From the sequence record PV467748.1: DNA of 64,000 bases. One strand, written 5' to 3'. Both the position numbers and the translations under genes were made by a program. Within the stretch, counting starts at the first letter, position 1, and each line of letters opens with the position of its first letter. The notes below the pieces were generated by a model. That model was not told where the DNA came from. It did no database searches and saw only the letters and a list, made by a program, of their open reading frames with translations. The stretch comes from a phage. Positions 3,233 through 40,486 of the stretch are shown piece after piece.

Positions 3233-3470
3233 CCTTGATGCATGATTCAGCCATATGAATTAATGTTTCTGGAGTATCATCTACCATTACATTAAAGCTA
3301 AATTCTACAGCCCAATCAGTGGCAACATAAACTTTAATAAGCTCGTTGGTATCACGAGTGCTCACGGCTTCAAACCAGAACTTAATAATACTCGTTTGTC
3401 CATCGTCATCAATAACTGTGCAGTCATGCTCCAGTTCAAGTCCTGATTTTTTGAATTCATCTAAAGTCAT
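3207..3470 (-). CDS. hypothetical protein (gene 46.2 position)
   Basis: 87-aa track ORF; its start overlaps the gp47 stop. Confidence 0.45.
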   Translation of the reverse strand: MTLDEFKKSGLELEHDCTVIDDDGQTSIIKFWFEAVSTRDTNELIKVYVATDWAVEFSFNVMVDDTPETLIHMAESCIKDAYNDENV

Positions 3471-4489
3471 CGTGTAACCTCATTATAAAGTTGTGCAGCC
3501 ATAGTCTTAAGGGCTTTAACATCGTCTTCGGTGTGACCATCAGGAAGGGCATCGATATAATCATACATCATATCCAAGAGGGACTTAACTTCATCTTCCT
3601 CTTCAGAATCATCGATATCAACGCTGTTATCTACCTTAGACACAATACGTAAAGAGTGAACAACCTTTTCAAGTTCAGATTCGAACTTGGTAAGCCCGTC
3701 ATCAATTTTATCGACTATAACACGAACCGCAATATTTGTAAAATCTTTGTAATCGATAGTCGCATTCGGGTAATGAATCTTACGATGCCAACAGGTTTCA
3801 TTGATGATGAAATCCATTTTATGCGTTTCTGTATCGAAAATCCAGAAGCCACGAGGGTCGTTCTCATCACCGGCAGTTAGGGTCCATGGCGTACCAATAT
3901 ACTTAACGTTTGCCGCATCAGAAATGGTGTGGAAGTGGCCAGACCATACTTGCTTATACTTCTTAAGGAAATCAGGTTCTAAACCATGTGATTTCATTCC
4001 TTTATAGAAATAGAAACCATTTAATTCCCAGTGGCCAATACAGAAATCTGCTGTAGTATTTTTGATATGGTCCATGATATCGGTCGTGTTTTCTTCACAC
4101 ATCCATGGAATCAAATCAATTTCGGTGCCATCAAAGTTAACCGTAGTAGGTTTTTCAATAACCTTGATATGGTCGTATTTACCCAGAACTTCAGAAGCCG
4201 CGTTCGGCGTCAGGGTGTTTTTGTAGTGCATATCATGGTTGCCAACGATAGTATACATGGTAATGCCGTTGGCTTTAAGCAAATCAGAGATTTCGCGAGC
4301 GAATTCCATACACTTATGGGTAATTGCTTTACGAACGTCAAAGATATCACCGTATTGAATCCATACAGTAATGCCATTTGCTTTAGAATAATTAATAGCG
4401 TCTTGGATACCTTGACGTTGGATATTTTGTACCCACACATCATCGGCCTTCACTCCAAGGTGCCAGTCACCTGTGTTTAATATTTTCAT
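3467..4489 (-). CDS. 47: recombination nuclease subunit gp47 (SbcD/Mre11-like phosphoesterase)
   Basis: Track ORF 3467..4516 begins at a TTG; the first ATG gives MKILNTGDWHLGVKADD...GNHDMHYKN, near-identical to recalled T4 gp47, with calcineurin-like phosphoesterase motifs. Confidence 0.9.
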   Translation of the reverse strand: MKILNTGDWHLGVKADDVWVQNIQRQGIQDAINYSKANGITVWIQYGDIFDVRKAITHKCMEFAREISDLLKANGITMYTIVGNHDMHYKNTLTPNAASEVLGKYDHIKVIEKPTTVNFDGTEIDLIPWMCEENTTDIMDHIKNTTADFCIGHWELNGFYFYKGMKSHGLEPDFLKKYKQVWSGHFHTISDAANVKYIGTPWTLTAGDENDPRGFWIFDTETHKMDFIINETCWHRKIHYPNATIDYKDFTNIAVRVIVDKIDDGLTKFESELEKVVHSLRIVSKVDNSVDIDDSEEEDEVKSLLDMMYDYIDALPDGHTEDDVKALKTMAAQLYNEVTR

Positions 4490-4629
4490 AAGCCAAGCAC
4501 CGTTATTGCAATGCAAAATAAAATTATTGAAATGACCCCGTCAGGAGTGGAAAAGAATCCTATCCAACAAGCTCGTGTGAATGTGTAGAATGCCATGAAT
4601 AACACGACATATCCTAAAAGTAGTTCCAT
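4486..4629 (-). CDS. small hydrophobic peptide (47 aa), translationally coupled to gene 47
   Basis: Hand translation: MELLLGYVVLFMAFYTFTRACWIGFFSTPDGVISIILFCIAITVLGL; SD GAGGAGA 5 nt upstream; stop overlaps the gp47 ATG (ATGA). Below the track length cutoff. Confidence 0.45.
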   Translation of the reverse strand: MELLLGYVVLFMAFYTFTRACWIGFFSTPDGVISIILFCIAITVLGL

Positions 4630-5412: not shown

Positions 5413-5643
5413 TTAATCCTTTGGAGTCAATTCAATAGTGAAGTAGAAATTAGCGTTCTCAACATGATAACGATAATCTACGTTATTGTCAGGAGAAGTG
5501 AATTCAATATTCCTGACGTTAAGTGGGTCAATATCAATAGGAAGACCTTTAACATCCCGTAATATCAATTTAATAAAATAAGGGAGTGCTTCGAAGTCTT
5601 CCATTCCATCTAAAAGTGGAGTGATATTAATCTGATGTTCCAT
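5413..5643 (-). CDS. hypothetical protein
   Basis: Track ORF 5413..5679 starts at GTG inside the gp55 3' end; the first ATG gives [11 protein letters not shown]...; weak RBS. Confidence 0.3.
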
Positions 5644-6184
5644 ATAAAAAATCCAGTTCACCAACTTTAGGTTCGGCACTCTTATCAGACCCTGGTGCTT
5701 TAGTTAAAGAGGTTTCATACTGTGTCATTTTATCGTAGATATCTTGGATAAAGGTTTCATCTGCAATACCTACCATATCGTCATCATTACTGTCGTAGAC
5801 ATTATGGACGAAGTAGCTATATTTCTTTGCCATTTCTTTACGTTCTTTTTTGATACGCTGAACGAAGGCATTAAAACAAGCCATAGTGATATATGCATGT
5901 GGGTTGTCGTATTTTGTTTCGTCGAAGTTGTGAAGACCTTTAATAGAAGCTTCGATTCCATCAGAAATCATTTCTTGCTTCCAGGATTGGGTATATCCTG
6001 AGAAGTTGAAACGTTTACTTAGTCCTTCAGCAATGAGCATAATAGCCAAGCCTATAACGTCGTTCTGACGAACTATTTTATTTGGATCGGTATTTTCTCT
6101 GAGCTCTGTTTTCCATTGGGTAATAGCTTTCAGAAGCTCCTTATTATTTACATAATTATTTTTAGTCAGTTTAATTTCGGTCAT
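5627..6184 (-). CDS. 55: late-transcription sigma factor gp55
   Basis: 185-aa track [31 protein letters not shown]...[12 protein letters not shown]... closely matching recalled T4 gp55 in sequence and length. Confidence 0.9.
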
Positions 6185-24084: not shown

Positions 24085-24091
24085 TTTGTAA

Positions 24092-24141
24092 TCTCCTGTA
24101 GTTGATAGGTCTATAGTACCACGTCTACAGGAGATGTAAAC
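24092..24141 (-). promoter_or_regulatory. early promoter cassette (PeSL-like): -35 GTTTAC, 17-bp spacer, -10 TACTAT, perfect arms ctcctgtag/ctacaggag
   Basis: Plus ctcctgtagttgataggtctatagtaccacgtctacaggagatgtaaac, immediately upstream of regB. Confidence 0.65.
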
Positions 24142-24145
24142 TGCT

Positions 24146-24355
24146 TTATTCTTGGAATGGGGTAAGTTTTCCGACAGCAGAACAAATTTCTACCAGCACC
24201 GGATAAAACTCTTTCACCTGTTCAAGGCGCTGGGCTGCGTACTGCAATTCACCTTCTTCAATACAAGCCGTTTGGTCGTCAAGCAAGTATTTGTGGTAGC
24301 CGGTACAGGCTTCACCGATGATGCGTTGGAATTCTTGCAAACTTTCGATTTTCAT
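24146..24355 (-). CDS. hypothetical protein (~69 aa)
   Basis: Track ORF 24146..24397 trimmed to an internal ATG that abuts the upstream stop. Confidence 0.35.
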   Translation of the reverse strand: MKIESLQEFQRIIGEACTGYHKYLLDDQTACIEEGELQYAAQRLEQVKEFYPVLVEICSAVGKLTPFQE

Positions 24356-24848: not shown

Positions 24849-25137
24849 ATTTTTTCCAGTCAGAAATCATATGAATCTCTTGGTCATACGTCAAGAGACT
24901 GCGAGTAATAATACCCTTACACGGCCCAGAGATGAACTCGAGAGTGAAGTAAGGAACCTGTTTCATTAATCGGATGCTTGGGGCATGACATCTAAAACGA
25001 GAGCCCTTAAAGGGCCCTGACATGAATACATATTCTAATGGATAGAAATAAGCATATTCGAAATTTGCAGTAAGGTCCTCTCTTCGAACCTTACGTGAGA
25101 AATAACAGAACTCAAAAAGTTCTTCATCAGTCATCAT
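24841..25137 (-). CDS. hypothetical protein (98 aa)
   Basis: Track ORF. Confidence 0.45.
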   Translation of the reverse strand: MMTDEELFEFCYFSRKVRREDLTANFEYAYFYPLEYVFMSGPFKGSRFRCHAPSIRLMKQVPYFTLEFISGPCKGIITRSLLTYDQEIHMISDWKKYV

Positions 25138-25661
25138 TGCATTCCTATCACAAAGAACAGCGGCAGAGGTTTAGAACCCTGGCACATAAATTTGTTAATC
25201 ATTACCTGGTAAGCTTCATAGAACTTATCCATCGATGGAAGGCGCATTGGCTCTTCGATAATAATCAATAATCGAGTAACTGATAGACCACGATACTTAT
25301 GGAAGTTATCTTCGTCTAAAAATGATCGCACGGTATCATATACAATAAACCCAGGACCTTCTACTTGAAGATGTGGATGAGCCTTAGAAACCCTTTTTAT
25401 TACATTACAGATTTCGCGTGACCGGTGCGAAGAACTCGACATAACAATCACATCATTACCCTTGGAAACCCAATCAGCTGCGAACTGGGCAAGGGCACTT
25501 GTTTTACCTGTTTGGCGTCCACCGTCAAGTCGAAGAGTACCAAACTCTTGCATTCTTGAAGTAGGTTCGTACCAGGTGTATTGGTTTGAGTCTAAACGTT
25601 CAATGGCGCGTTCAGCGAAGGCGTGCATTAAGGTTAGATAAATGGGAGTTAAAAATTTCAT
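25134..25661 (-). CDS. small P-loop NTPase (175 aa)
   Basis: Track ORF with Walker A GGRQTGKTSA and Walker-B-like LLIIIEEP. Confidence 0.5.
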   Translation of the reverse strand: MKFLTPIYLTLMHAFAERAIERLDSNQYTWYEPTSRMQEFGTLRLDGGRQTGKTSALAQFAADWVSKGNDVIVMSSSSHRSREICNVIKRVSKAHPHLQVEGPGFIVYDTVRSFLDEDNFHKYRGLSVTRLLIIIEEPMRLPSMDKFYEAYQVMINKFMCQGSKPLPLFFVIGMQ

Positions 25662-25810
25662 AGTGGTCTCTTAGTTGTGGGGCCATTCCTTGGCACATAA
25701 TTCATCCCTTTCTGCATTTACCCATTACCGCACTTGGGCTCGACCTTATTACAGGTTGGCGGGAGTCCCTCACAGAATTGTGAGGTCCAGGTTGCTCCCA
25801 TTTTTAAAGA
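25662..25810 (-). other. 149-nt structured intergenic region with a nested ~40-nt stem-loop and no promoter cassette
   Basis: Plus 25759-25800 gcgggagtccctcacagaattgtgaggtccaggttgctccc has outer arms GGGAG/CTCCC and inner arms CCTCACA/TGTGAGG. Confidence 0.35.
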
Positions 25811-26170
25811 TTAAAGATGGTCGAGTGCCGGGTTATGAGGCTTTTCTGCTTTAGCAGTATTTTTGTGCCAATCTGATTTAGAAACACGAATTGCATCCGC
25901 ACCGTAAGAGCTCTTAAGGAGGCCCTTTTTATTGTAAACACTTATAGAAGTAAGGGTGTCACCATTCCAAGTAGCATGGACGAAGTTGGATTTAGATTTA
26001 AGTTCTTTAGCCAGGCTCTGGTTGGTAGCCATGGAAGCAAAGTCTTTACCTGTAACTTTAAAAACTTCAGATGGGTTCAGCCCTTCTTTAGCCTTAGCCA
26101 ATTGTTCAGGAGACATAGCTTCGTTAATGCGCTGAGTAGATTCAGTAATAAATTGTTGGTAAGTTTTCAT
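25811..26170 (-). CDS. internal-protein-like gene with capsid-targeting sequence (CTS), 119 aa
   Basis: Track ORF starting MKTYQQFITE, matching the T4 internal-protein N-terminal CTS and prohead-protease site pattern [IL]-x-E. Confidence 0.6.
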   Translation of the reverse strand: MKTYQQFITESTQRINEAMSPEQLAKAKEGLNPSEVFKVTGKDFASMATNQSLAKELKSKSNFVHATWNGDTLTSISVYNKKGLLKSSYGADAIRVSKSDWHKNTAKAEKPHNPALDHL

Positions 26171-26212
26171 ATTATTCCTTAAGTTGATAGAAGTATTCTA
26201 TCACGGATTTAA

Positions 26213-26629
26213 TTAAGCGTAAATAGCCTTGCCGTAATGTTTGTACCAGGTAGGACGCTGTGCAATTTTTTCGTCCAAACGAGCTTGTGAAATGGCGATA
26301 GAAGCTTCGTGAGGAACATAATCACCACGGAATTCCTGAGGAATGTCACTAATGTCCTGGACCGTAGTATCCTTGATATTAAAGCCACGTTTTAAACATT
26401 CAGCTATAAGCTCAATTTGACGCTTACGTAAAAATTCAAGCTTATCATAAAAGAATGTAACGTGGCCTGTACCAAGGATAAAAGTAGGACTGATTTTAAA
26501 ATCACGAACACGTTTACCGTTAGCAACATGCTTACGAACTGCACCGAAAACACGTGGTAATTCACGATATTCGGCCATTAAGTGTTGGTCAGCCAATTCA
26601 GATACTAAGGTAAGGTTGATACGAGTCAT
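26213..26629 (-). CDS. denV: endonuclease V (pyrimidine-dimer DNA glycosylase) DenV
   Basis: 138-aa track [37 protein letters not shown]... essentially identical to recalled T4 DenV. Confidence 0.92.
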
Positions 26630-26635
26630 TTTTAA

Positions 26636-26686
26636 TCTCCTGTAGTTGATAGGTCTATAGTATCATGCCTACAGGAGATGTACACT
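26636..26686 (-). promoter_or_regulatory. early promoter cassette (PeSL-like): -35 GTGTAC, 17-bp spacer, -10 TACTAT, perfect arms ctcctgtag/ctacaggag
   Basis: Plus ctcctgtagttgataggtctatagtatcatgcctacaggagatgtacac, immediately upstream of denV. Confidence 0.6.
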
Positions 26687-26711
26687 GCTTTTTATCTATA
26701 AGAGGGCTTTA

Positions 26712-27308
26712 TTAATTACCACGGGCTGCATTAGCAACGGCGTAAGCGTACTGAACATTAGCGTCTTTAAACGTACCTTTAGAGGTATCTATTTCTGCCT
26801 TAAAGCCACCTTTAGCCATAACATCAGCAAATTCTTTACGGAAAGCCATTGCATCAAGACCTTTCCATGTTGATTTGTGCTTGGCAAATTCAAGACCGGC
26901 GAAGTTGACAGCCTTAGCCAATTTATTATCAATAGTCCATTTACCTGCTTTAGGTACAACTACCGGGCCTTTCTGTTTAGAGAACAGTTTTAAATTCCAG
27001 CGACGAAGGTCGCCGTCAGCTTTAACAAAAGCTGCGTCCAAGTTACTAGCAACAACATCCTGAATATGGCCAAATTTAAGCCCATCAGCTTCAATATTTA
27101 GGTCGTTACGCCAGCGAAGTCCTTCCCAGGCGAAAGCTTTAAAGTCAGAAGCTTTTGTAGCTAAGTACCGTTCAATAGGAGCTGTTTTAGCATCAAAACC
27201 GTTTCCTGGGCGATCAACGCCGTTTCCTCGGTAAGTCCACTCATCTTTATTAATGCCTTGGACCTTTCCTACAGAAGCTTCGGCGATAAATTCTTTATAC
27301 GTTTTCAT
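26712..27308 (-). CDS. internal-protein-like gene with CTS (198 aa; ipII position)
   Basis: Track ORF starting MKTYKEFIAE; lies between denV and e where T4 carries ipII/ipIII. Confidence 0.6.
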   Translation of the reverse strand: MKTYKEFIAEASVGKVQGINKDEWTYRGNGVDRPGNGFDAKTAPIERYLATKASDFKAFAWEGLRWRNDLNIEADGLKFGHIQDVVASNLDAAFVKADGDLRRWNLKLFSKQKGPVVVPKAGKWTIDNKLAKAVNFAGLEFAKHKSTWKGLDAMAFRKEFADVMAKGGFKAEIDTSKGTFKDANVQYAYAVANAARGN

Positions 27309-27324
27309 ACGGGTTCCTTAAAGG

Positions 27325-27390
27325 TAAATATTTTAATTGGTCTGTTCAAGTAACTGTATATATACTATCACAATTCTAGGAGATGTAAAC
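27325..27390 (-). promoter_or_regulatory. degenerate early promoter (-35 GTTTAC, 17-bp spacer, -10 TAGTAT) overlapping the 3' end of the upstream IP-like gene
   Basis: Minus-strand read GTTTACATCTCCTAGAATTGTGATAGTAT.... Confidence 0.45.
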
Positions 27391-27789
27391 TTATTTGTAA
27401 GTTTTCATCCAATTCTTGAACAAAGCCGCGACGTCTTTCTCTTTAACGTTCAGTTTAACGTCCAGCATTTTGCCACCAGCGGCACGTGTCTGACGAATCT
27501 TAGCCGTACCGGTTTCGCCGTTCCACTCAACATAATACTGTCCGGTGTTCATAGCGATACCATCGCCATAGTCTTCATTTTTAGAAGTGGTGAATGCCAG
27601 CTTCATAGTCTTAGATACACGAGCCTGCATGCCTGACTGTAGAGCGTTACGAACGCGAATAACCTGAGGAGTGGCCTGGGTCAGGTTCTCGTTCAGTTCT
27701 TCGGTGAACTCTTCGGATTCGAACATCGCCAAAAGTTCTTTAGATGCAGGAACTACATTCTCTGCGATAAATTCATTATAAGTTTTCAT
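27391..27789 (-). CDS. internal-protein-like gene with CTS (132 aa; ipIII position)
   Basis: Track ORF starting [10 protein letters not shown]; ends ...KNWMKTYK*, a CTS-like remnant at the 3' end. Confidence 0.6.
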
Positions 27790-28270
27790 ATGCTTTCCAA
27801 GTACCTGTTTTAAATGTTGAAATCACGCGCTTAGCACGGTTAGGAGTTTGCTTGTACCAACGAGATTGAGCCAGGTTAACTGCCGCATCGTTCCAACGTT
27901 TCTGTTGGAGCATACGTAAAGAGTTAGTGAACCCTGCTACACCTGCTTCACCCATTTGGAAGACCATATTAATCAATGCGCAACGACGAACTTCGTCCAA
28001 CACATCATAAACCGGTTTCAATTTAGGATTACGCATTATAGCTCTACGAGCATTTTCCACTGAACGATTAAAGAGTTGTTCGGCTTCAGCCATAGTAATA
28101 CGACCATTACAAACTCGACCCATAAGCTTATCAAGTTCAGCGCGGGCAACATCTTTAGATGGGTTCTTGGTAACTAACTGGCCAATACCAATAGTCCAAT
28201 AACCTTCAGTGTCTTTATAAAGATTTAAATCAAGACCTTCGTCTTGACGTAACATATCAAAAATATCCAT
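27776..28270 (-). CDS. e: lysozyme (endolysin) e
   Basis: 164-aa track [35 protein letters not shown]... closely matching recalled T4 lysozyme in sequence and length. Confidence 0.92.
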
Positions 28271-28274
28271 AATA

Positions 28275-28300
28275 CCTCCTGAGTATAGGAGGTATTTATA
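28275..28300 (-). promoter_or_regulatory. late promoter TATAAATA with SD-sequestering hairpin (CCTCCT/AGGAGG) for gene e
   Basis: Minus-strand read GATATAAATACCTCCTATACTCAGGAGGTATTATG; same architecture as described for T4 gene e. Confidence 0.6.
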
Positions 28301-28750
28301 TCAAAAGAGCGAATCTAAAACCTTAAACATCGACGGGCCCATGACATATTTCCATTGTGGACGTTTAATCAAGGCAAAGGCATCGAATTCAGGAATCGTA
28401 CGACCATCAGGGAACGTATGGTAAGCTGTACATTTGCAATTCTTGAACTGCTCGTGTTCCACAGGCACAGTATATAAGAACAGGTGTAGATTCTTATTGC
28501 TTGAATATTTGAACTCGCCTAGGTCTTTCAGGAATGCAGGATCGTATGCCGTGAATCCAATCTCTTCTTCGGTTTCACGCATTGCGGCTTGAATAGGCTC
28601 TTCGCCTGGTTCTACATGACCTTTAGGAATGTCCCATTTATGACGCATGTTCTCTGGATTACGAGAGCCTGTTACACGACCCATAACTAGTTCTTTATCA
28701 ACGGTCATGAACAAAATACCGGCAGATAGTTCTTTCACTTTCTTACTCAT
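28301..28750 (-). CDS. nudE: Nudix hydrolase NudE
   Basis: Track ORF 28301..28855 trimmed to ATG (MSKKVKELSAGILFM...); Nudix box GHVEPGEEPIQAAMRETEEEIG; sits directly downstream of e as in T4. Confidence 0.8.
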   Translation of the reverse strand: MSKKVKELSAGILFMTVDKELVMGRVTGSRNPENMRHKWDIPKGHVEPGEEPIQAAMRETEEEIGFTAYDPAFLKDLGEFKYSSNKNLHLFLYTVPVEHEQFKNCKCTAYHTFPDGRTIPEFDAFALIKRPQWKYVMGPSMFKVLDSLF

Positions 28751-28979
28751 CGTCTCGTTTCCATGATTGGTTAAAAATATCTTGCATAATAATTTGAAGT
28801 CTATTTTCTGATGATGGACTTTCACTATCAGACACTTGAAGCATATAGTCACCAATAGGACAGAACATATTCATATCGCTTTCTAAATCTTCTTTGATTT
28901 TCTCTTCTGACGTTCCGGTATCATAGGAATACAGATAAGAATCACATGACTCAGATTTAATATAAATTGCAATACTCAT
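28743..28979 (-). CDS. hypothetical acidic protein (78 aa)
   Basis: Track ORF; start coupled to the upstream stop. Confidence 0.4.
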   Translation of the reverse strand: MSIAIYIKSESCDSYLYSYDTGTSEEKIKEDLESDMNMFCPIGDYMLQVSDSESPSSENRLQIIMQDIFNQSWKRDDE

Positions 28980-29569
28980 TTACGGCATTCCTTAATAAAC
29001 TCATTTAAATTATGTTTGTTTTTACCTTCGTCGTAAAGACGTTGTTGACGACGTAAACGCCATGGCATTTCAATAGCCAAGCACCAAATACTTAAAGCAG
29101 CGCCAGCTGTGAAAAGATTCATTAATCCGGCGCCAATAATAGTTCGTTCTAGCGCATCATTCCAGTTAGCATCGATTAAAAATGAACTCAACACTAACAT
29201 TGGAAGTAAAGTAATAAAATACGCTACAACATATCGTCCGAACGTAAGCCATTCAGTATCGATGAGCTTAGCCTTTCCATCTTGGAGACAAATATACTTA
29301 TCGTCAGTGCGGGTGATTTTCTTTACCGGTTGCCAACCATTTACGATATAACCCATTCTGAACTCCTCAATTAAAAGCTGTTTCATTTCGGCAGTACAAC
29401 CTGACCAATCTATTGTACTGGCTGAAATTCCTTCATCACCGTCATCGATATTTCGCCAGGACTTTTTAATAATCATAGTCTCACCACTTGGGATAATAAT
29501 TCCGGCATTTTCCGACCGACGGATGAAGTTTGTATCAATACCCATACAACCAGGTTCATAAAGGGCCAT
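28976..29569 (-). CDS. membrane protein (197 aa) with C-terminal tail ...NEFIKECRK
   Basis: Track ORF; two C-terminal TM helices then a basic tail whose last codons contain the SD of the next gene. Confidence 0.5.
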   Translation of the reverse strand: MALYEPGCMGIDTNFIRRSENAGIIIPSGETMIIKKSWRNIDDGDEGISASTIDWSGCTAEMKQLLIEEFRMGYIVNGWQPVKKITRTDDKYICLQDGKAKLIDTEWLTFGRYVVAYFITLLPMLVLSSFLIDANWNDALERTIIGAGLMNLFTAGAALSIWCLAIEMPWRLRRQQRLYDEGKNKHNLNEFIKECRK

Positions 29570-30482: not shown

Positions 30483-30493
30483 TTTATTCTCCA

Positions 30494-30551
30494 TTTCACT
30501 CTGTTGTTTTGATAGGTCTATAGTATCACACCTATAGACCTTGTACACTGT
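30494..30551 (-). promoter_or_regulatory. early promoter cassette variant with internal 10-bp palindrome aggtctatag/ctatagacct (-35 GTGTAC, -10 TACTAT)
   Basis: Plus ctctgttgttttgataggtctatagtatcacacctatagaccttgtacac. Confidence 0.55.
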
Positions 30552-30560
30552 TTTGTGCAA

Positions 30561-35675: not shown

Positions 35676-35942
35676 TTATTTCATATTATTGAAATAATCT
35701 TCCGCATCAAAATCATTATCATGATAAACTTTGGTAGACAATTTAACATAACCTTCGGCAGCGAACATATTAACCACAACCTTTACAGTATACCATTGTC
35801 CATCATCTTCATTACCCATTACTGCATAGGTTTCATACACCGGGTGTTCAGGACCGACAACCTTAATATCGTTAACTGTGGCACCAAATTCTTCCGGAAC
35901 ACATTTCATAAAGAAATTAAACACTTCACCATAATTATCCAT
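35676..35942 (-). CDS. hypothetical protein (~88 aa)
   Basis: Track ORF 35676..35957 trimmed to ATG (MDNYGEVFNFF...) after SD GGAGAGTAAA. Confidence 0.45.
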   Translation of the reverse strand: MDNYGEVFNFFMKCVPEEFGATVNDIKVVGPEHPVYETYAVMGNEDDGQWYTVKVVVNMFAAEGYVKLSTKVYHDNDFDAEDYFNNMK

Positions 35943-35948
35943 TTTACT

Positions 35949-36007
35949 CTCCTTCACTCTGTTGTTTTGATAGGTCTATAGTATCATGTTCTACGAAAGA
36001 GTAAACA
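35949..36007 (-). promoter_or_regulatory. early promoter cassette (-35 GTTTAC, 17-bp spacer, -10 TACTAT); leader shared with cassette at 30494
   Basis: Plus cactctgttgttttgataggtctatagtatcatgttctacgaaagagtaaacatc. Confidence 0.6.
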
Positions 36008-36660: not shown

Positions 36661-37125
36661 TTATTTGATTTGTTTAGCAGACCAGATACGGTCTTTGATG
36701 ATTTTCTGAATATCTTCAACATACTCTAAGTCGTGAGCATGCGGATTATCTTTGAAGCTATGTGCTCGTGCCAGTTTCTGGCCTTCTGTTTTGATTACTA
36801 AAAGCTCTTTAAGAATTGCTTCATACTTAGAAATAATTCCTTTGGCGATATTTTTTTCTTGAGCGGCTTTAGGGTCCGCTTTTGTCGCAGGTGCTTTACC
36901 TGTAGCTTTCTGGAACAATTCACCTGATGCAGCTAGGCTTTTAAAAACTCGGCTAACAGTATTAGCATTAGTAAAACCTTCGGCTTTAAAATCTTTAATA
37001 AAACGGAAACGTTCTTCATCAGAGGCGTCTTTGTAAGAATATTTACCTGCTTGAATTGCTGCAATAGCAGCGGCTTTTACATCTGAACTAGATTGTTCGG
37101 TCAAAAATTCATTGTAAGTTTTCAT
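36661..37125 (-). CDS. internal-protein-like gene with CTS (154 aa)
   Basis: Track ORF starting MKTYNEFLTE; first gene downstream of the tRNA locus. Confidence 0.55.
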   Translation of the reverse strand: MKTYNEFLTEQSSSDVKAAAIAAIQAGKYSYKDASDEERFRFIKDFKAEGFTNANTVSRVFKSLAASGELFQKATGKAPATKADPKAAQEKNIAKGIISKYEAILKELLVIKTEGQKLARAHSFKDNPHAHDLEYVEDIQKIIKDRIWSAKQIK

Positions 37126-39169: not shown

Positions 39170-39184
39170 TTTATTCTCCAATCA

Positions 39185-39236
39185 CTCATTTGTTTTGATA
39201 GGACTATAGTACCATCACTAAAGCCCGTTGTAAACA
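39185..39236 (-). promoter_or_regulatory. early promoter cassette variant (-35 GTTTAC, -10 TACTAT)
   Basis: Plus tcactcatttgttttgataggactatagtaccatcactaaagcccgttgtaaaca. Confidence 0.55.
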
Positions 39237-39237
39237 A

Positions 39238-39510
39238 TTATTTTAAATAAATTGCATATTTTTTATAACCAGCTGTCTCGTGGCGCAGCCCTTTTTCATT
39301 AGCAAAACGTTCAATATTATTGATTTGATTCTGGTCAAGTTCTGACGTGTCAAATACAAAAAAGTTTCGCTTGTTGCCTAAAGTTACATGATTAGTCAAA
39401 TCGATGTTATAGAGATGATTTATATTATCAATCATGGTCTTAACAGATTTGTTAATTTTTGCTTCTTCATTAAGAATAGATTCAGCGATAAATTCTTGAT
39501 AAGTTTTCAT
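39238..39510 (-). CDS. internal-protein-like gene with CTS (~91 aa)
   Basis: Track ORF 39238..39555 trimmed to ATG giving MKTYQEFIAESILNEE.... Confidence 0.55.
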   Translation of the reverse strand: MKTYQEFIAESILNEEAKINKSVKTMIDNINHLYNIDLTNHVTLGNKRNFFVFDTSELDQNQINNIERFANEKGLRHETAGYKKYAIYLK

Positions 39511-39519
39511 TTTGATTTC

Positions 39520-39578
39520 CGTGTGGTTGGTTTGTTTTGATAGGTCTATAGGCATGATACTATAGACCTTGTAAACAC
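39520..39578 (-). promoter_or_regulatory. early promoter cassette variant with internal palindrome aggtctatag/ctatagacct (-35 GTTTAC)
   Basis: Plus ttttgataggtctataggcatgatactatagaccttgtaaacacc. Confidence 0.5.
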
Positions 39579-39587
39579 CTTTTTAAA

Positions 39588-40486
<899 letters not shown>

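Follow-up and report, generated by a model that had tools for sequence, protein, structure and literature searches.

Three capsid-targeted genes around denV in a Dhakavirus: an IPIII orthologue and two candidate families of injected proteins

What do small phage genes encode when they share a ten-residue leader and continue into unrelated bodies? The question is raised by a stretch of 64,000 nucleotides (nt) of phage DNA (sequence record PV467748.1), the whole of which is referred to here as the window. Three open reading frames (ORFs) of 132, 198 and 119 amino acids (aa), located on the two sides of denV, begin with a capsid-targeting sequence (CTS) of the type found in the internal proteins of T4. 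The 198-aa ORF is the orthologue of T4 IPIII, and the other two are orphans, referred to as w132 and w119. In our reading, which we hold with a probability of about 0.62, the three cassettes encode proteins that would be packaged, processed by the prohead protease gp21 and injected, and the orphans are most likely subtype-specific inhibitors of host defense. The sequence features, the homologies and the polymorphism of the cassettes are observed directly; packaging, cleavage, injection and targets are deduced.

By its nucleotide matches the window is that of a Dhakavirus, a T-even phage similar to JS98 and WG01. Over the 2.7 kb around the locus, the best nucleotide matches are the Escherichia phages WG01, AnYang, JS10 and JS98, with about 94% identity. 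All genes of the region from e to vs.8 are on the minus strand. Listed as they would be transcribed, the genes are e (lysozyme, 27776-28270, Pfam Phage_lysozyme), w132 (27391-27789), ipIII (26712-27308), denV (26213-26629, Pfam Pyr_excise, phrog_1183), w119 (25811-26170) and, after a 150-nt gap, vs.8 (25134-25661). The order of e, internal-protein (Ip) genes, denV and vs.8 is the same as in T4, and the interval matches that of T4 ipIII and ipII. T-even phages have two hypervariable Ip loci, and judged by this gene order the region from e to vs.8 is one of them. A sequence-only reading of this DNA had placed the three ORFs at exactly these coordinates, to which the strand (minus) is added here, and had described them as flanking denV; the gene order bears this out, with w132 and ipIII on one side and w119 on the other.

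The leaders of w119 (MKTYQQFITE, encoded by the 30 nt at 26141-26170) and ipIII (MKTYKEFIAE, 27279-27308) are of the MKTY type, as that reading had proposed, and the leader of w132 (27760-27789) fits the same CTS pattern. Residues Tyr4, Phe7, Ile8 and Glu10 are kept in all three ORFs, and the [IL]8-x-E10 protease site is present. A degenerate CTS-coding pattern, ATGAARACNTAYNNNNNNTTYHTNNNNGAR, finds these three segments and three more on the minus strand. The six matches in the 64-kb window compare with 0.00 expected (100 shuffles), and every one is the start of an ORF. The window encodes six candidate internal proteins, three more than had been named before.

In T4 IPIII, the first 10 residues are sufficient for packaging, also of foreign proteins, and gp21 cleaves after L/I-x-E (PMC9026906). 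Experiments of Mullaney & Black 1996, as cited in PMC9026906, assign residues 4 and 7, both aromatic, to targeting and residues 8 and 10 to processing. After removal of the leader, the predicted mature proteins of the three ORFs have 109-188 residues and are basic (pI 8.8-9.65), compared to pI 9.0-9.65 for mature T4 IPI*, IPII and IPIII. The propeptide of T4 IPI ends further in, at ITE17-19, and with this precedent second cleavage sites are also conceivable here. There is one further [LI]-x-E site in w119 (INE15-17) and one in w132 (LNE32-34, see below).

Beyond the leader, the three bodies are unrelated to each other, as had been noticed from the sequence. In BLASTP comparisons without the first 10 residues, no match reaches an E value below 0.4, and when the w132 and w119 families are compared profile to profile, only residues 1-24 are aligned.

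The IPIII orthologue and the two orphan families

The 198-aa ORF and T4 IPIII have 172 of 198 residues identical over the full length (87%, E 2e-127). They differ by an insertion of 6 residues (GVDRPG) and by 26 substitutions or gaps. The ORF belongs to phrog_5341 ('internal virion protein', 1e-114) and is annotated as ipIII in JS98 and AnYang. The two proteins have the same type of CTS (MKTYKEFIAE here and MKTYQEFIAE in T4), and their genes are located in the same interval between e and denV. Unlike T4, however, the window has a CTS gene, w132, between e and ipIII. By analogy with T4 Ip3, which blocks the GmrS1/GmrSD2 doublet of E. coli ECOR17 (PMC12373910), this orthologue most likely inhibits type IV restriction enzymes of the GmrS1/GmrSD2 type. 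Growth of T4 on ECOR17 requires IPIII (Srikant et al. 2022, PMC9391042).

The sequence-only reading had regarded all three bodies as divergent, and had said that close homology to T4 IPII or IPIII would count against it. One of the three ORFs, the 198-aa ORF, is such a homologue, and for it the claim of divergence is withdrawn. The claim stands for w132 and w119, which are unlike IPI, IPII and IPIII. None of the three bodies has significant similarity to T4 IPII, and those of the two orphans have none to IPIII either; the best matches of the orphans, to other ORFs, have E values of 0.14 or worse. In a comparison of the w132 family with T4 IPI by hhalign, only residues 1-11 are aligned, with a probability of 3.9%.

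The w132 protein is a member of phrog_15461 (8e-91), a family of unknown function, and sequence searches find no relatives in Pfam, NCBIfam or the Protein Data Bank (PDB). Clustered at 90% identity, its family forms 17 clusters, all with the CTS, in a set of 5.8 billion proteins. About 50 phage records carry it, from Dhakavirus, from Klebsiella phages such as Marfa (about 85% identity), and from Serratia phage 4S and Erwinia phage Cronus (about 50%), where the gene is located directly after e. The model produced by AF2 has a pLDDT of 56, with residues 1-36 disordered, and Foldseek finds no match to it in the PDB with E below 0.24. Leu32 and Glu34 of the LNE32-34 site are invariant in the family. 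The site follows an acidic, variable segment that is modeled as disordered, and a cut there would leave a product with pI 9.9. The predicted propeptide of w132 comprises residues 1-10, or possibly residues 1-34.

A marginal profile match of the w132 family (alignment A2, residues 30-101) is to the D3 region of Salmonella phase-1 flagellin (for example PDB 1io1, residues 224-296; E 0.02, 18 bits). It finds no support from Foldseek, is probably compositional, and was set aside.

The start codon and the first codons of the w132 gene are inside the last 14 nt of e (27776-27789, where ...AYENL* overlaps ATGAAAACTTATAA), and in the window the gene lacks a spacer, a promoter and an upstream region of its own. 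The JS98 copy is located after ipIII and has its own ipIII-like ribosome-binding site (RBS) region. At the other end, the DNA for the C-terminal residues ...NWMKTYK* (27391-27420) is 76% like the start region of w119 over 33 nt. The C-terminus varies gradually among the homologues (WMKSYK, WMKVHK, WMKTHAK and WLK), and because of this gradual variation it is probably intrinsic to the protein. It may instead be a remnant of a CTS joint or of a downstream CTS gene.

The w119 protein belongs to phrog_3966, also of unknown function, and again sequence searches find no Pfam, NCBIfam or PDB relatives. There are three clusters of this family among 5.8 billion proteins, and an exhaustive HMMER search finds two credible representatives among 1.84 billion proteins. 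The records comprise 13 from Dhakavirus and about 77 at about 32% identity. The one examined among the latter, moskry, is a Mosigvirus, and its homologue starts with MKTYQEFITE. The w119 model (pLDDT 65) has no fold match. An RTX protein and a helicase, both long repeat proteins, also matched in HMMER (E about 3-6e-4) and were rejected as matches of repeats or composition. The label 'RNA polymerase ADP-ribosylase' on the w119 homologue of phage ESCO10 was also rejected, as the product names in that record are shifted or garbled. The annotations of vB_EcoM_ESCO10 (OM386655.1) are unreliable in other places as well, with the lysozyme named 'baseplate subunit'.

Cassette exchange at the locus

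The relatives compared (T4, JS98, WG01, AnYang, ESCO10, moskry, Serratia 4S and Erwinia Cronus) have from one to five CTS cassettes at this locus, in differing orders. The order is e, ipIII, ipII, denV in T4 and e, w132, ipIII, denV, w119 in the window. WG01 has the order of the window with an additional 85-aa CTS gene, and AnYang has e, w132, ipIII, ipII, denV, w119 and a 99-aa CTS gene. In JS98 the positions of ipIII and w132 are swapped (e, ipIII, w132, denV, 99-aa CTS gene), and in ESCO10 the interval from e to denV is empty (e, denV, w119, 99-aa CTS gene). The order in moskry is e, a 93-aa ORF, denV, an annotated non-CTS ORF, a 104-aa ORF and the w119 homologue, and in Serratia 4S and Erwinia Cronus it is e, the w132 homologue and denV.

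Pairwise BLASTN comparisons place the breakpoints at the edges of the cassettes. At one junction the breakpoint is seen at the level of single bases. The window is 97% identical to JS98 over 26694-26141, from upstream of denV through the last CTS codon of w119 and of JS98 orf112, and the sequences are unrelated from there on. The two genes have in common only the upstream sequence and the CTS, and the CTS-coding 30 nt of w119 (26141-26170, minus strand) form the left recombination joint.

The elements found between the genes are consistent with such exchange. A module of 63 nt with a promoter and a stem-loop (PeSL-like) is located upstream of denV (26629-26691, minus strand). It is 92% identical over 63 nt to a copy upstream of regB (24085-24147) and is also present in WG01, JS98, AnYang and ESCO10. 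PeSL modules have been proposed as mediators of shuffling in the hyperplastic regions of T4-type phages (PMC4122927). The cassette content of this locus would be reshuffled between phages by recombination at a shared unit of promoter and stem-loop, ribosome-binding site and CTS. Compared to the hyperplastic Ip loci and PeSL shuffling described before (Repoila et al. 1994; Arbiol et al. 2010; Comeau et al. 2014), the locus has the same variability in cassette number and order, a breakpoint at the conserved leader (w119/orf112), and promoter and stem-loop repeats between the genes. Nothing essential differs, and the window provides a Dhakavirus example.

Copies of the PeSL-like repeat (core TTGATAGGTCTATAGTATCA, plus strand) are found at 24085-24147, 26629-26691, 27334-27396 and 30492-30554, with more at 35942-35986, 39170-39214 and 39512-39556. 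They are upstream of regB, denV, ipIII and other small genes. The hairpin of the denV copy sequesters a GGAG Shine-Dalgarno sequence.

The only match to the T4 late-promoter consensus near the locus, TATAAATA, is upstream of e (28293-28300, minus strand), and no terminator-like sites are found in 25000-29000. Late transcription of the CTS genes is likely to be read-through from this promoter. Two promoter-like sites of the sigma-70 or early type, both on the minus strand, both with TG and both identified by match to the consensus only, are positioned upstream of ipIII (TTTACA-16-TAGTAT, 27362-27389, inside the PeSL-like repeat at 27334-27396) and upstream of w119 (TTTACG-17-TAGAAT, 26195-26223).

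These observations raise the alternative that the leader is kept as a recombination module (promoter, RBS and first 30 nt) and not for packaging, in which case the ORFs would be cytoplasmic early proteins or decaying relics. A breakpoint at the very end of the CTS codons, PeSL-like repeats flanking the cassettes and early-type promoter-like sites ahead of ipIII and w119 speak for it. The leaders of the distant homologues speak against it. Both orphan families keep the CTS across genera although their bodies fall to about 35-50% identity. In the w132 homologues the leader has become MKSYNQFLDE in Serratia 4S and MKTYKEFLAE in Cronus. It has thus changed at both the DNA and the protein level, yet only at non-critical positions, and exactly Tyr4, Phe7, [LI]8 and Glu10 are kept, which argues for selection on the peptide. 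Moreover, the ORFs are intact and their conservation extends across genera, and the 10-residue leader of T4 packages foreign proteins (PMC9026906). We regard this alternative as highly improbable.

Proposed function of the cassettes

A counter-defense function for injected proteins of this locus, as suggested by the sequence-only reading, is a reasonable proposal, but it is the published view and not a new idea. Polymorphic ip genes were recognized by their leader (Repoila 1994, as cited in PMC3012670 and PMC12373910), and the T-even internal proteins have been described as diverse defense proteins with the CTS alone in common (Rao & Black 2010, PMC3012670). More recently, Silas et al. 2025 (PMC12373910) found that Ip1, Ip2 and Ip3 each block a distinct type IV enzyme of the GmrSD family, and they proposed GmrSD variants as the targets of all proteins of both Ip loci.

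In the sequence of events that we envisage from T4, each CTS protein would be made late in infection, and its 10-residue N-terminal CTS would attach it to the prohead's scaffolding core of gp22. The protease gp21 would then cut after [IL]-x-E10, and possibly also at the predicted second sites, after LNE34 of w132 and after INE17 of w119. What is left, a small and basic mature protein, would stay in the head with the DNA, be injected together with it, and act stoichiometrically, ahead of any phage gene expression. For the orphans, the most likely role is that of additional inhibitors with subtype specificity, directed against modification-dependent (GmrSD-family) nucleases or against other first-response defenses. 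On the analogy with the characterized Ip proteins, an anti-defense role of the orphans is likely, most probably against modification-dependent nucleases.

The proposed model for the orphans is T4 IPI* (Ip1), the injected inhibitor of the GmrSD enzyme of E. coli CT596, for which an NMR structure is available (Rifat et al. 2008). The principle would be the same for w132 and w119: a small, basic protein that loses a propeptide at [IL]-x-E, is packaged and is injected. The low-confidence model of w132, with a helix, a β-sheet and a helix, is loosely similar to the description of IPI* (PMC3012670). Unlike the case of an IPI* orthologue, however, there is no sequence or profile similarity past the first 7-11 residues, and the genes are located in the other Ip locus. 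A second comparison is with T4 IPII (Ip2), the inhibitor of GmrSD/BrxU of ECOR21, whose gene is in the same interval between e and denV. A true ipII orthologue is present in AnYang, but the window has no ipII and neither orphan resembles T4 IPII.

Several points weigh against this reading. Gene 21 is beyond the end of the window, and the gp21 prohead protease was checked in relatives alone; gp21 of JS98 is 89% identical to that of T4, with genes 67, 68 and 22 present and adjoining gene 21. No virion proteomics for the w132 or w119 families was found in the literature. Structure prediction, suggested as a check by the sequence-only reading, produced models of low to moderate confidence (pLDDT 56 and 65), with no fold match and no functional clue. 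T4 mutants without IPIII assemble heads at about half the rate, with a burst that is about 40% of the normal one (PMC9026906), so a structural role may also be involved. The proteins ip4-10 gave no reproducible inhibition of five more GmrSD systems (PMC12373910, Supplementary Fig. 9), so a GmrSD target for every Ip is a hypothesis. Finally, Dhakaviruses may carry a cytosine modification other than glucosyl-hydroxymethylcytosine (glucosyl-hmC), as suggested by synteny only in a 2026 paper (PMC13326640), and this may change the defense targets.

The assembly and burst defects of T4 without IPIII are in line with a different role for the orphans, in which they are packaged by way of the CTS but serve the virion itself, in DNA condensation, charge neutralization, scaffold or head assembly, or DNA ejection. 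Their basic mature forms (pI 8.8-9.9) are also expected of DNA-associated proteins. The genes are dispensable across lineages, however. The interval between e and denV holds no cassette in ESCO10, w119 is missing from JS98, and T4 has neither orphan. Presence or absence from phage to phage, together with a very narrow distribution, is the signature of host-specific accessory genes, and all three T4 Ips are specific nuclease inhibitors (PMC12373910). A virion role for the orphans appears rather improbable to us.

The negative results with ip4-10 speak for a second alternative, that the orphans are injected effectors against targets other than GmrSD, such as other DNA-sensing defenses, host transcription (compare Alt) or host nucleases (RecBCD). 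Phages with these families belong to Dhakavirus, Mosigvirus and Marfavirus or infect Serratia and Erwinia, and their cytosine modifications may differ from those of T4 (PMC13326640). Neither IPI* nor any other known inhibitor resembles the orphans in fold. On the other hand, all three characterized proteins of the Ip loci target GmrSD enzymes, and there is no hint of an enzymatic domain in the orphan sequences. On this evidence we consider non-GmrSD targets unlikely.

A bolder version of the anti-defense proposal is that the orphans are two new families of injected inhibitors against nucleases tuned to non-glucosyl cytosine modifications (arabinosylated hmC or 5-hydroxycytosine), or against a class of defense not yet tied to any Ip. 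Such modifications are suspected in Dhakavirus, Mosigvirus and Marfavirus. In the window, no ORF of the size of an alpha-glucosyltransferase is located between 3467-4516 and 5627-6184, which we take to be genes 47 and 55, presumably the neighbors of a-gt in T4. The proposal is tentative and, in our judgment, fairly unlikely. If true, it would extend the Ip arms race beyond glucosyl-hmC and GmrSD. The reading preferred here is that of packaged and injected proteins, with the orphans most likely acting as subtype-specific inhibitors.

A second Ip locus and an RNA-like element

The three further CTS ORFs are at the second Ip locus, in the 57B/tRNA region. All were found by the pattern match and are on the minus strand. 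The fourth ORF of the window (36661-37125) encodes 154 residues, starts with MKTYNEFLTE and belongs to phrog_2280. The fifth (39238-39510, 90 aa, MKTYQEFIAE) belongs to phrog_7673 ('internal head protein') and the sixth (39588-39797, 69 aa) to phrog_23867. The 90-aa and 69-aa ORFs immediately follow 57B, where T4 has ipI, but none of the three resembles T4 IPI beyond the leader. The mature part of the 69-aa protein is acidic (pI 4.1), unlike those of the others.

The apparent spacer between w119 and vs.8 contains a conserved element of about 126-135 nt (about 25675-25800, minus strand), which is found in 973 phage records. Its T4 counterpart (NC_000866, about 64814-64939, minus strand) is located directly after denV, and the annotation assigns it to the 5' end of vs.8. 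The copies in close relatives differ by indels of 17 nt and 4 nt, and because these are not triplets the element is more likely non-coding. It has an invariant 40-nt core, CCNACC-UGUAAUAAGGUCGAGCC-NNAGYGC-GGUAANGG, flanked by covarying helices. The closing helix P1 occurs in at least 8 complementary variants, GGGAG/CUCCC, GGGAA/UUCCC, AAAGG/CCUUU, AAAGC/GCUUU, AAAGA/UCUUU, GGAAC/GUUCC, GAAUG/CAUUC and GUGUA/UACAC.

A covariance model (R1) finds exactly one copy of the element in 29 of 30 loci. In the R1 alignment, which is itself fitted to the model, 93.5% of the cells pair, compared to 83.9% in shuffles, and 12 pairs have double changes, a number reached by none of 500 shuffles. The covariation score is 0.263, compared to 0.107 for the shuffles and at most 0.095 for slid controls. 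In Jiaodavirus and Marfavirus the element is positioned between two Ip genes, and outside the T-even group, in unrelated phages and metagenome contigs, it adjoins tRNA clusters in the same orientation. There is no match in Rfam 15, and the core sequence was not found in a literature search. The element looks like an undescribed small structured RNA, and it may deserve more attention than the Ip finding.

As the concept and the locus are already known, and so is one gene of the three, the analysis of the Ip genes adds candidates and no new principle. What is new is only that two narrowly distributed families join the known Ip set, and either of them may be among ip4-10. The locus also illustrates clearly how cassettes are exchanged, with a breakpoint that falls at the CTS codons. 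As targets are known for Ip1, Ip2 and Ip3 only, the w132 and w119 families are compact candidates for the existing GmrSD panels. Internal proteins act before phage gene expression and are therefore first-line determinants of host range. This makes them relevant to the choice and engineering of T4-like phages for therapy, a use for which many Dhakavirus isolates are candidates.

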